Position numbers and translations under genes: made by a program. A stretch of DNA of 63,285 nucleotides, the filler included, from Collodictyon triciliatum (taxonomy: Eukaryota), in NCBI GenBank assembly GCA_043381765.1. It is 6 parts of 6 records of this genome, joined end to end, with 100 filler letters (N's around TTAATTAATTAA, not from the genome) between each part and the next. Parts side by side here need not be neighbours in the genome. Positions count along the whole stretch, not along the records: positions 13,422 to 26,719 come from JBHJMP010002011.1; 5 more parts are not named here. One strand, written 5' to 3'. This document shows positions 13,633 to 26,530 of the stretch, piece after piece. Within the stretch, counting starts at the first letter, position 1. The number at the start of each line of letters is the position of its first letter. The notes under the pieces are model-generated. The model did no database searches, had not been told where the DNA came from, and worked only from the letters and a program-made list of their open reading frames with translations.

Positions 13633-15900
13633 TAGAAGCACTTTCGGTGAACGACGCTTGGCCCGTTTTCGTCGTAGTCTTCCTTGGTGACCCACATTTG
13701 CTGGAAGGTGGACATGGACGCAAGAATGGAGCCGCCAATCCATGTCGAGTATTTCCTCTCGGGCGCAGCTATGACCTAAGCATGAGAGGGGGGAGATGGC
13801 AGCATGGATGAGTTGCTGTCTCACTTTCTTGCGCATGCGGAGCGACTGCGGAATTGAAAGAAAAAAATCGAGGAGGCTGTAGATGACCTTGACTTGATGT
13901 TTGGTCAGCGGCGTAAGGTCTTTGGTAATTCGCTCGGCAATCCCTCCAAACATCGATGAACCGCCCACCAGGCAGATATTCTTCCACATTTCTGGTTGAT
14001 TCTACAAACAAGTACAGAAGCCAGCAAATCAGCAAGGCAAGCAGAGCCGACCATTAAAAAGAGGAGAGCAGAACAGAACAGAAAAAAAAAACGGAACGGA
14101 GAGTAGGAAAAGAAATACAGAAAAAAAAAACGTCCTGCTGAATTCAGGCAACCCAAGAGATAATCTAGAACTAAGCAGCAGTGGTTCTGAGCTGTTACTT
14201 ACGGCTGCTTCAATCATGGAAATGCTTGAGTGAATCATCTTGGACAAGCCCGGAGTCTGATGAATGATAGAGTGAATTGCAAGACGTGCCGATAATAGGA
14301 ATGAGCGCACACAAAATGAGATGTATGAATTTGAGAGTGTAATCATACATTCAAGAATGAAAGCAAAACGCTTTTCTTCTCTCTTCTATTAATAGTGTGG
14401 GGGCTAAACCTCAATTCCAACCAGCTCGGGTCTGAAGAGAATTTCAGGTGCTCTGAAGCGGCTGCTTCCCACGGTAATTACCTGGACATTTGTGCGGAAG
14501 TCTAGTTAATGATATGTGATTTCCTCGAGGAGGCAAACGCAACCATATGATATTGCAAGGAACCGCACCTGTCCGTCCGGCAGTTCATAATTCTTTTCTT
14601 CGAAAGAAGAACTGGAGATGTCCTTATCATAATCGGAGCTGATGAAGCAAAGCTTTTCTTTGATGTCACGCACAATTTCTCTCTCGGCCGTAGTTGTAAA
14701 GGAGTAACCTTATTGTTTTGTTAATTGTGAATACTATTCGATCGACAACAAGCATCCGTGCTATGTCTGAGATACTTTCGAGATACAAATCCGTCATATC
14801 TACATTCAATCCTAGTCACACGAAACAATTTCAAACCTGTCTCGGTCATTGTTTTCATCAAGTAATCAGTGATCGACCGCCCTCCGATATGAAGTCTCTT
14901 GGATGCATGATGCAGCGGATAGCCCTCATAAATACAGGAAGTGTCTGTTCCTTGGTCTCCGATGTTGACTACCATTCCAGTTGATCGGCCGCAAGCATAC
15001 AATGCTAATTGTGGCTGGAAGGTAGATTCAGTAAACGAGACGAAAAGGGAAACAAGAAAACATATGGCATCTTGTTCTTAAAATTTGATGGCGATAGTCT
15101 ATTTTGGAGAAGAAAAATAAGACACCTGGCCAGCCAAATAAACTGCAGGACTGTTGAAAGTTTCGAAGCAAATCTGCAGTATTTTTTCCCTTTGGGCTTT
15201 CGAGCTAAATGGAGACTCAGAAAACAAAAGTGGGTGTTCCTCGGGTGCGACACGCAGTTCATTATAGAAAGTGTGGTGTACAATTTTTTCAAAATCGTCC
15301 CAGTTTGTGATGACTCCACACTCGACGGGGTATCTGGGCCAAAAATAAATAAATAATAATTAGCATTACAGCTACATCTAGAGGAATCGTACTAATGGCT
15401 GTCTCAGTATGTCAAAATAAAATAGAAGTGTTATGTTCTACGCATTTGCAAACAAAAAAAAAAAAGTTGAAAAAACGGAGCAAGTTTCTTTTCTTTGACG
15501 CACTTGAGTGTTAAAATTCCTCTCTTGCTTTGAGCCTCATCTCCAACATATGAATCCTTCTGTCCCATTCCAACCATCACACCTGTTTAAAACACGTTTA
15601 AATCGTGATGGTTATTAAGCCATCAAATAAAACAATCCAAATGCAATACAATATTACTCATGCAAATTTTAAATCCTGTAGAATTAAACAGTTTTAGAGA
15701 TAAGATGCATGCCGACAAAAATAAAAGAAAAAGAGAAAAAGAAAGGAAAAGATATGCTTTGAACAATCATCGCATCAACCTTGGTGTCGCGGACGCCCAA
15801 CAATGGTAGGGAAAACCGCACGAGGCGCATCATCCCCAGCAAAGCCAGCTCGAACAAGGCTTGAACCCATGTCGATGACCAGTGAGGTATAGTCTTCATA
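13633..15900 (-). other. Complete divergent actin domain (C-terminal part of the fusion gene)
   Basis: [63 protein letters not shown] ... [13 protein letters not shown] ... [19 protein letters not shown] ... [12 protein letters not shown] ... [25 protein letters not shown] ... VHRKCF*. Confidence 0.95.
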
Positions 15901-24900: not shown

Positions 24901-26530
24901 CATCGTTCGACGCCTGCAAAAGAATGGTGCCTTGCACCGGAAGCACACCCTCATCCTCCAAACGCGGGATGGTACACAACAGGCTGGAATTGGAGTGGAA
25001 TTCGTATTCCACAGCAACAAGTTTCCCCAGACGAATGCGAAAGTACGAACCAGGGAGGAAGTTCAATCCAAACACTGCAACCTAGAAGAAGGGAGGGAAG
25101 AGAGAGAAATAGTTGGGAGACAGAAAATAAAAAGAATGAGAATTGATATTTGTCGCACAAGGCCACTGGATACATACATATATCTCAGAAGCATAGGGAA
25201 ATATAATCAAGCAGGAAAACAAGTATTACATATGAAGAGGATTTTTAATAAAGGTGATTGATATCAACGAAGGTGACAAGAAGGTATAGACCAATCATGA
25301 ATGGGACGATGGCTTTCAGGAGAAATTATGAGAATGTGACGAATTTGCATTCCTTGTAGAAATATTATTTAAAGTGATTATGCAAAGACCTTAAAGCCTC
25401 CTGTGGCCGGGCCTTCTTCGGGAAGCACCATTGTCACATCGGGGATTCCGGTGGATTTCTTTATGGCCCCTTCAACCACAACTACGTTTTTCGTAGGTGA
25501 TGTCTGCGTACGGGGCTTTGCGTCGGATGGAATCATCGCTCGTGTGGGGTTTCTATCGACAACGTCCATACGCATTGATTTCTGCTCATAAATGAATGGC
25601 GCATCGATAAATAAGTCGCTAGGTACAAGTTTAGTTTTGTGAAATGATGAAGTGGTAAATCACAAGAACAGACTTTATCCTTGACGAGCTGATAGAATTC
25701 GGAGTCAGTCACCACTTTTATTCCCTTTTGCTGATTCGTAAAAGAGGTGGAGTGTGTTAGCTTATGGTCATTTGCTGTGGGTTTCTTTGGATAGATTTGG
25801 TTCTTGAAGAATCAGCAATACATCAAACCAGACATTCCAACAAGTAGAATGGAAACTAAAAGAAACATTTTGATACGAAAACCTGAGAGAAAGCAAAATA
25901 GAAAGGGACAAATCCTTCTTTAAAATGTCATACTATCGCATCTTGGATTCTAGAGTCTGCTACGAGGCTCACACTGTGTTCCTTGTCAGGCTTTACTACA
26001 TGCGTTACCTTTGGGGTGAAAAAAAAAGTGATTATATTTCAATGACTAAAAAATCGCTCTTGAGGAGTCTTTCAGGAAAGAGGTGGGACAACCGCAGGCG
26101 TGCGTTTATTGCGTCTTTATTTTAATTTTGATTGTTTGTTTTGTTCTTGGGTGCTTATTCGAACTTTTGGTTATCATTCAATTCATTTGATTTAAAGAGA
26201 AAGAAAAAGAAAAAGAAAAAGAAAGGGTGTTTTCGGCATGGGCTTTATGAATTATGTGGACGGGTTGGAGGATCCAGAGAGAAGGGAAAGAAAAGGACGA
26301 GGAGACTTACCGAGCGATCGATGATGTAGTTGAGCTTCCCACCGTGTGAAGCAACAAGGCGCTCAAGGCTTTGCCGAGTGTCGCCCGGTCGGACACCGTA
26401 GATGTGGACGACGAAGCCTTTGAGAACTGTGTGGTGAAAGCAATTGGTATGCAGAAAGACTGGGCACAAATTGTCTGTGGAGATGCAGTAGTGCTTGCTT
26501 ACTCGCTTGTTGCTTCGCAGAGGGATTCAT
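13633..26530 (-). CDS. Multi-exon BRCT-IPT/TIG-DUF4062-NACHT/STAND-TPR-polyPro/WH2-like-actin fusion protein
   Basis: Hand-spliced GT-AG exons from ATG 26530 ([38 protein letters not shown]-like). Then IPT ([27 protein letters not shown]), DUF4062 ([26 protein letters not shown]), Walker A region (VSGDPGSG), TPRs ([21 protein letters not shown]), and a phase-consistent linker into actin. Stop after HRKCF at 13633. Not every internal NACHT exon was phase-checked. Confidence 0.75.
21245..21307 (+). repeat. (CAAAT)n intronic microsatellite
   Basis: Direct read. Confidence 0.95.
24250..24513 (+). repeat. Compound (CAAAGA)n/(CAAA)n intronic microsatellite
   Basis: Direct read. Confidence 0.95.

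Follow-up and report, generated by a model that had tools for sequence, protein, structure and literature searches.

A STAND-family NIR-NACHT-TPR protein with a complete C-terminal actin in the protist Collodictyon triciliatum

The window analysed here, a stretch of 63,285 nucleotides (filler included) from Collodictyon triciliatum (assembly GCA_043381765.1), contains a gene for an NLR-like STAND NTPase with TPR repeats that is fused at its C-terminus to a whole actin. The window consists of contigs joined by linkers, which are runs of N around the six-frame stop TTAATTAATTAA; these occur at 13366, 26764, 40138, 53519 and 61344 (5 matches versus 0.02 expected by chance), and genes on either side of a linker have no genomic adjacency. 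The fusion gene occupies one contig, at about 13430-26720, bounded by the linkers at 13366 and 26764. It spans 13582..26530 on the minus strand, as do all of its features below, with a coding sequence (CDS) at 26530..13632 that comprises 52 exons and encodes 1860 amino acids (aa); the mRNA ends near 13582, as judged by a poly(A) tail in a loose contig end at 13602. The domain order of the protein is BRCT, TIG, DUF4062/NIR, NACHT, NPHP3-type TPRs, a proline-rich linker, and a complete actin. That the STAND protein and the actin are fused in one gene is almost certainly real.

The gene model was built as a spliced protein-to-DNA alignment with P0107, a 1863-aa complete Trinity open reading frame (ORF) of Diphylleia rotans (EukProt), a collodictyonid (Collodictyonidae) within CRuMs. 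When one in-frame actin exon served as the query, P0107 had the highest identity of the 120 proteins listed (81%), the remaining 119 reaching no more than 72%; over its length it is collinear with the window protein and 66.8% identical overall, with the linker lowest at 52%. The alignment gives 51 exons, or 52 with a proposed first exon added, and the 51 introns are all GT-AG and measure 75-374 nt (median 122). The proposed exon 1 (26503..26530; 28 nt, with its ATG at 26528-26530) and first intron (26427-26502; 76 nt, GT-AG) were placed by reading the sequence and by their fit to the N-terminus of P0107, and this orthologue is the one source of support for the start (ATG 26530) and for all exons upstream of 21240. 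One acceptor was set at 17255, not 17249, from loose ends in the RNA. Pfam searches (E<=0.01) of single minus-strand ORF pieces matched 9 of 24 and returned nothing for the other 15; the families were BRCT, DUF4062, TPR_NPHP3, TPR_12 and Actin, the last in five pieces. Rfam gave 0 matches over the whole window.

RNA contigs were compared over 13600-21240. They derive from the sequencing runs X1 and X2, which belong to one study, from X3, a freshwater metatranscriptome from a second study, and from X4. A total of 31 RNA joints were reported over this interval, and the 15 displayed all read CT..AC on the plus strand (i.e., GT..AG on the minus strand) and all agree with the gene model. The joint directly ahead of the first actin exon, 16077/15942, is a phase 0 GT..AG junction present in contigs of both X1 (depth 27.1) and X2 (depth 11.9). 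Moreover, a single X2 contig of 1157 nt joins the TPR exon 17884-18038 to the actin exon 15780-15942, and X1 contigs chain from beyond 21236 down to a poly(A) tail after about 13582. RNA joints cover all seven introns of the linker stretch and all 8 introns of the actin, and when the RNA-supported exons are joined, no stop interrupts the frame between the TPR exons and the end of the actin. The RNA differs from the window at eight sites, and seven of these changes, one of them in the linker and three in the actin, are synonymous when read in the fused frame. X3 contributes spliced pieces of some TPR and actin exons with no cover of the bridge between them, and X4 contributes only 31-mers at a low-complexity stretch (16335-16367); neither is evidence in either direction.

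These results bear out what an earlier note, made from the sequence, had read at this locus. It had placed the beginning of the actin-coding exon at a splice acceptor with no start Met, and indeed actin exon 1 begins at 15942 immediately after an AG acceptor, with no in-frame ATG before the first actin strand; the exon upstream also lacks one. It had described the joint at 16077/15942 as phase 0 and GT-AG, and the exons from the last TPRs through two proline runs to actin as joining in phase, both of which are now seen in RNA. Its BRCT-like and IPT/TIG domains ahead of DUF4062-NACHT-TPR are recovered by Pfam, BRCT on a window ORF and in P0107 and TIG in P0107, and agree with the collinear model. 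Finally, it had read the actin as fused to the C-terminus of the STAND-TPR protein. The contigs show neither polyadenylation behind the TPR exons nor an independent start for the actin, although data of this kind can exclude neither. Three features described below go beyond the note: the NADase activity reported for DUF4062, a conserved tail module within the linker, and the replacement of most hydrolysis residues across the fused actins.

Two further features of the RNA contigs deserve mention. Contigs of X1 and X2 terminate within the actin CDS at 15190 and 15547 with adapter-like tails, which we take to be a SMART-type template-switch oligo, and the genome reads GGG and CATAT at these sites. 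Tails and placement point to template-switch cDNA as the source of the runs and to strand invasion, rather than transcript starts, as the origin of the ends. In addition, contig depth at 16150-16404 is several-fold above that of neighbouring bins (114 in X1 and 68 in X2), likely owing to low-complexity words (proline-run codons and an A-rich intron) that are common to other transcripts.

The protein begins with a BRCT domain (aa 8-86, spliced; 25692..26509), for which Pfam scores 22.2 bits on ORF 26245-26526 against a cut-off of 21.3 and which corresponds to residues 7-85 of P0107 (54% identity). An IPT/TIG domain follows (aa 139-221, spliced; 24887..25443), recognised as TIG at 138-220 of P0107 (E 5e-6) with 77% identity in the window. 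The DUF4062/NIR domain (aa 318-464; 22846..24034) reaches 30.3 bits against a cut-off of 24.7 on ORF 23321-23509, and 56.8 bits at residues 314-415 of P0107. It is the best-conserved domain between the two proteins (86%) and includes the S-x-S-E-x-E motif at 23028-23160. The NIR segment of P0107 matches PDB 11gz_A (TEP1 NIR) at E 3e-21, and T-E-M-E of this chain aligns with S-E-L-E in both P0107 and the window (aa 433-440). Because both Glu residues are kept, the equivalent of E1008, the glutamate reported to be catalytic in TEP1, is conserved, whichever Glu it is. A 2026 preprint (bioRxiv 10.64898/2026.09.04.749371) gives DUF4062 the new name NIR and reports that it acts as a NADase effector, both in bacterial defence systems and in human TEP1; among eukaryotes it describes the domain as N-terminal in many NLR-like proteins, above all those of Amoebozoa. 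The word “actin” occurs 0 times in its main text, supplements excluded.

The NACHT P-loop NTPase (aa 577-759; 20676..22040) is 68% identical to that of P0107. Its Walker A motif GDPGSGKS (aa 587; split by an intron, 21724-22010) and Walker B motif IILIDGLN (aa 689; 21151-21174), both read from the gene model, are intact with respect to GxxxxGK[ST] and hhhhD. TIG and NACHT are not matched on single window exons; they are matched in the contiguous orthologue, where NACHT (578-754) scores 35.0 bits against a cut-off of 26.7 and NPHP3_N scores 30.8 against 24.8. The next region comprises a helical domain and NPHP3-type/TPR_12 repeats (aa 760-1313; 17172..20675), identified by Pfam on window ORFs and in P0107 (TPR_NPHP3; TPR_12, 96 bits; TPR_10, 42 bits) and represented by spliced pieces in X1, X2 and X3. 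Orthology to NPHP3 was considered and rejected: P0107 falls below the cut-offs for TPR_NPHP3 (98.2 versus 100), NPHP3_hel (14.7 versus 27.9) and NPHP3 (19.4 versus 33), with only NPHP3_N passing, and the window protein is NPHP3-like rather than NPHP3. A ciliary role like that of NPHP3 was likewise rejected as unlikely, since the family occurs in amoebae that lack cilia.

The complete actin (aa 1493-1860; 13635..15897) is distributed over 9 exons and ends in H-R-K-C-F followed by the stop codon. The five window pieces matched by Pfam cover positions 3-359 of the Actin profile, and residues 1493-1862 of P0107 cover positions 2-409 of 410 (436 bits). The N-terminus of the actin is peptide-linked to the linker. 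With 8 introns, an intron density similar to that of the rest of the gene, and a GC content at third codon positions of 0.51 (0.47 in the STAND part), the actin represents an old, integrated part of the gene; a recent retrogene insertion was rejected on the intron count and third-position GC content.

The window actin is 63% identical to canonical actin and 73% identical to the actin domain of P0107, and the other fused actins are 67-82% identical to canonical actin. It retains the nucleotide-loop residues D11, G13, S14, G156, D157, K213, E214, G301, G302 and K336, with the changes N12M, G15S and K18R nearby. Across the fused actins, nine of nine retain D11, G13, S14, G156, K213, E214, G301, G302, K50 and E270; subdomain 2 with its D-loop is 89-100% canonical, the D-loop itself being kept perfectly, and the residues of the cleft between subdomains 1 and 3 are largely kept. 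The most diverged stretches are residues 137-180 and 270-337, at 36-76% identity. Q137, D154 and H161 are the hydrolysis residues of actin. H161 is retained in only one of the nine fused actins and Q137 in two; the window actin keeps Q137 and carries D154N, G158Q and H161D. When read in light of established actin biochemistry, the fused actin would bind ATP with an altered hydrolysis site and would keep its pointed-face loop and most of the cleft.

Between the last TPR and the actin lies the linker (aa 1314-1492; 15898..17171). It includes a run of eight prolines (16953-16976), a conserved tail module (16230-16907, with a WH2-like core at 16494-16737), and a run of seven prolines (16158-16178); a block of ~70 aa between the two runs is strongly conserved between the window and P0107. 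The tail module features a short helix, L-K/R, and then D-R-S-(D/S)-A...A-M-L-G...R-K-I-x-F-K-K, with proline runs upstream. A comparison of C-terminal ends found that actin-less relatives terminate in the same module, and its occurrence as their ordinary C-terminus is new here. A profile built from 17 tail sequences matches 19 of 392 stored proteins, all within this STAND family; 17 of the 19 are seed rows or contain one, and the profile thus adds only 2 new matches. In all 16 actin-less matches, no more than 0-20 aa separate the module from the C-terminus and at least one run of five or more prolines precedes it; in the window, P0107 and the metagenomic P0133, the actin follows immediately behind it. 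By eye, P0126 and its actin-less sisters have a variant tail in common. When the linker exon 16077-16310 was used as a query for longer proteins, 0 of 450 candidates scored. The module also resembles, by eye, WH2 motifs of the WIP/MIM type. A WH2-style pattern, chosen after the motif had been seen, has a match in just one of 391 stored proteins, the orthologue P0107, and a single match in the window protein. This WH2 likeness, which neither Pfam nor PDB profiles recognise, is offered as a lead only.

The window gene is a member of a conserved, apparently low-copy STAND family in CRuMs and Amoebozoa. In a whole-length search with P0107, at least 8 of the 120 proteins listed combine STAND/TPR families with Actin (P0107, P0121, P0122, P0123, P0125, P0126, P0127 and P0133). 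Sources other than Diphylleia are Balamuthia mandrillaris (NCBI), Pyxidicula operculata, Copromyxa protea and JGI contigs; the Pyxidicula and Copromyxa members are complete transcriptome ORFs. Public records of the fused proteins are unnamed or labelled only “actin”, as is the Balamuthia entry. Actin-less relatives were found in Pelomyxa, Mastigamoeba, Mastigella, dictyostelids and metagenomes, and a separate metagenome scan with P0107 returned 85 pattern matches with 0 confirmed relatives.

A tree of the STAND part was inferred from 30 rows: the window, six further actin-bearing proteins trimmed of their actin, and 23 relatives without actin that were chosen by hand. P0127 and P0133, truncated at the N-terminus, did not enter it. 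Actin-bearing rows are spread over three places. The window pairs with P0107 (100), a second group is an amoebozoan clade (99), and the third place is that of P0126, on a long branch. An approximately unbiased (AU) test rejects a single clade of actin-bearing rows (p 0.0005), which implies several captures of actin or its repeated loss. In the actin-domain phylogeny that the earlier note had recommended, with 18 rows, canonical actins group together (SH-aLRT 93) and the fused actins branch apart from them without resolution; the tree favours neither one nor several origins. The suggestion that the architecture was undescribed holds for the literature, in which no description of an NLR-actin fusion and no characterising paper was found; filactin, the POTE-actin genes and the NIR preprint come nearest. 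It does not extend to sequence records, as the fusion is already in databases for at least four named species and is not unique to Collodictyon. The NIR-NACHT-TPR-actin architecture has been present in public databases, unremarked, while described in no paper that we found.

Several known systems share parts of this architecture. NIR-containing, NLR-like STAND proteins (human TEP1, NWD1/2, TTC41 and NPHP3; bacterial Avs-type defence proteins) have in common with it an N-terminal NIR, a P-loop STAND domain and C-terminal repeats; the window protein differs from them in the BRCT and TIG domains ahead of NIR and in the proline-rich tail and whole actin after the TPRs. Integrated-decoy NLRs, such as plant Pik-1 with its HMA domain and mouse NLRP1B (PMC4547098 and PMC13037943), carry a copy of a host protein or domain on the sensor side of the receptor, as here. 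Unlike these, the present protein is a protist NACHT+TPR rather than an NB-ARC/NACHT+LRR protein, the integrated domain is a whole actin, and the family is conserved rather than diversifying. With a host-target-like domain, an entire actin, placed after a TPR sensor in an NLR, it is a candidate integrated decoy.

Other proteins resemble it at the actin end. Filactin of the amoebozoan Dictyostelium (PMC2441452) shares with the window protein a compact, conventional-type actin that is C-terminal to a long N-terminal extension. The filactin extension is presumably not a STAND NTPase and presumably has no NIR, NACHT or TPR. Additional whole-actin fusions have other partner domains: POTE ankyrin-actin (P0182), Sec23/24-trunk+vWA+WW+actin, CRAL_TRIO_2+actin and VIT+VWA+actin. 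Their actin is C-terminal in the families scanned and near the N-terminus in most Sec23/24-type rows checked. Among all whole-actin fusions found, only this family combines actin with a NIR-NACHT-TPR core. WASP/WIP/MIM, Ena/VASP, Spire and Cobl are actin assembly factors with proline-rich and WH2 modules that are activated by clustering. Like these modules, the tail has proline runs, a short amphipathic helix and L-K/R-x-x...D-R-S; unlike them, it has no Pfam or PDB match to WH2, lacks the Arp2/3-binding C/A motifs, and ends a STAND NTPase.

Our preferred reading, at a probability of about 0.45, is a switch whose docking tail monitors actin and in which an actin captured in cis serves as bait. 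The switch would be of the NLR type and driven by nucleotides. If it has the polarity usual for STAND receptors, sensing or regulation would fall to the C-terminal part (TPRs, tail and actin) and output to the N-terminal NIR, which would hydrolyse NAD+ once the NACHT domains oligomerise. The position of NIR ahead of NACHT, its high conservation, its match to the TEP1 NIR with both Glu kept, the effector role that the preprint reports for it and the intact Walker A and B motifs support this polarity, and the tail module shared with actin-less members supports a link to actin across the family; we assign sensor or bait to the actin end and output to NIR tentatively, at slightly less than even odds. 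The family tail, in its simplest reading, would be a docking site for actin or profilin-actin. The appended actin may then be a captive ligand: an internal copy of what is guarded, still able to bind ATP although its hydrolysis site is altered. Modification, cleavage or sequestration of the fused actin, or of cellular actin that competes for the tail, would trip the switch, and so would a foreign factor that binds either of them. A more ambitious version, whereby a conserved protist NLR family guards actin through an ancestral WH2-like tail and has placed a hydrolysis-altered “captive actin” at its C-terminus in at least three places of the tree, is rather unlikely to hold in full.

A number of observations weigh against the proposed actin-monitoring switch. 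The RNA that bridges TPRs and actin stems from one study only; the contigs, to which transcript starts, ends and abundance are invisible, are also compatible with additional, shorter transcripts; and the 5' third of the gene model is without RNA support. PADLOC defence models returned 0 families for P0107, and the family appears conserved and low-copy, unlike diversifying immune receptors. The Balamuthia clade of amoebozoan actin-bearing members has no significant match to the tail profile, and a tail that holds its own actin therefore cannot be general. Regarding the tail itself, none of the 17 tail sequences has a Pfam WH2 match even at E<=10, nor does the 103-aa linker of P0107 have one, a phmmer search of the linker against PDB gave 0 matches, and the tail profile found in PDB only three chance-level, non-WH2 matches (E 1.7-5.5), though a motif of ~20 aa is near the detection limit. 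Lastly, actin assembly factors typically have proline runs with a short basic helix behind them, a point in favour of the rival, nucleator reading.

In that alternative, which we judge unlikely though clearly ahead of any artefact, the actin end would serve as output or as anchor instead of as sensor: oligomerisation of NACHT would cluster tails, proline runs and attached actins into a filament seed, or would lead to filament insertion or capping. Clustered factors of the WH2 or VASP type do create filament seeds, and the module of helix, L-K/R and DRS sits directly ahead of actin with proline runs flanking it. Because the actin is attached through its N-terminus, it could still be incorporated into a filament. 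The near-canonical D-loop and subdomain 2, the largely kept cleft and the by-eye, post hoc likeness of the tail to WIP/MIM-type WH2 motifs point the same way. Since actin-less relatives keep the tail as their C-terminus, acting on actin could be the job of the family as a whole, and the presence of the family in amoebae without cilia makes an NPHP3-like ciliary role unlikely. The confirmation of WH2 that Pfam or PDB profiles might have given is absent, however; subdomain 3 is the least conserved part of the fused actins (36-76%), and the loss of Q137 and H161 in most of them is unexpected for a normally cycling filament subunit. Furthermore, a well-conserved enzymatic effector, NIR, already occupies the usual output end. 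It is also conceivable, at very long odds, that the fusion is an artefact of read-through, contig chimerism or a merged model, or that actin is made as a separate product from an internal start (M-A-R-K-M) or by proteolytic release. An in-frame ATG is present in the exon at 16466-16539, the depth of X1 contigs drops toward the 5' end (64, 27, 12), two contigs stop inside the actin CDS at the sites given above, and some database “actin fusions” are plainly merged models, such as tandem actins and probably P0180, in which actin is N-terminal. The depth profile fits the 3' bias of oligo-dT cDNA, however, and adapter-like ends at GGG and CATAT are, we presume, what strand invasion during template switching would produce; because they fall inside the actin fold, no functional actin would result from them. 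The actin exon has neither a start codon nor an upstream stop, the junctions from TPR to actin are all in frame and RNA-seen, and 7 of the 8 polymorphisms leave the fused protein unchanged. With 63% identity to canonical actin, the fused copy is a diverged paralogue and not the abundant canonical form. Complete fused ORFs were also assembled independently from the transcriptomes of three other species.

NLR-like STAND proteins with NIR, TIR and other effectors are emerging as an immune logic common to bacteria and eukaryotes. Here, the sensor end carries a recognisable ligand, actin, and actin-less relatives carry an apparent docking tail. The fusion may serve as a natural “Rosetta stone” for an orphan family, for which a question open to experiment can now be posed: does actin, or damage to actin, gate a NADase? 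If the captive-actin guard reading is true, the diphylleid protein would be the first NLR of the integrated-decoy type outside plants and animals, converting an attack on actin into the burning of NAD+; if the nucleator is true instead, it would be the first signal-gated actin nucleator to carry its own seed subunit. The fusion also gives actin research an actin that is tethered by its N-terminus in nature, has an altered hydrolysis site and has been kept in two eukaryotic supergroups. More broadly, fusions of whole actins recur in public protein sets, where they have gone largely without comment.

Recurrent whole-actin fusions were observed in other protist proteins (P0169-P0229, P0322, P0288, P0335 and P0376). 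The Sec23/24-trunk+vWA+WW combination with actin occurs in Balamuthia, Pelomyxa and many metagenome contigs; VIT+VWA+actin was found in Anaeramoeba, VWA+actin in a foraminiferan, C1+actin in Sphaeroforma, and LRR+actin in a JGI contig. Two proteins of Moniliophthora roreri (P0180 and P0292) combine NACHT/NPHP3_N with actin, one N-terminal and one C-terminal, with no TPR or tail; these models may represent merged neighbouring genes or a separate NLR-actin fusion. In animals, six uncharacterised proteins of 1400-1800 aa from amphioxus, shark and bony fishes (P0296, P0306, P0344, P0325, P0373 and P0379) carry a complete C-terminal actin, and three of the six scanned have an N-terminal CRAL_TRIO_2; this looks like another undescribed actin-fusion family.

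Finally, two regions on other parts of the window were noted. The minus-strand gene at 48799-52627, on a different contig, encodes DUF4062, NACHT/AAA_16 and TPR with no actin (ORFs of 952 and 288 aa); it is nearly intron-less and only 18-21% identical to P0107. On the plus strand, 33100-34686 has a GC content of 0.60 versus about 0.37 elsewhere and harbors an ORF that combines two Myb DNA-binding repeats with a long tail of low complexity.

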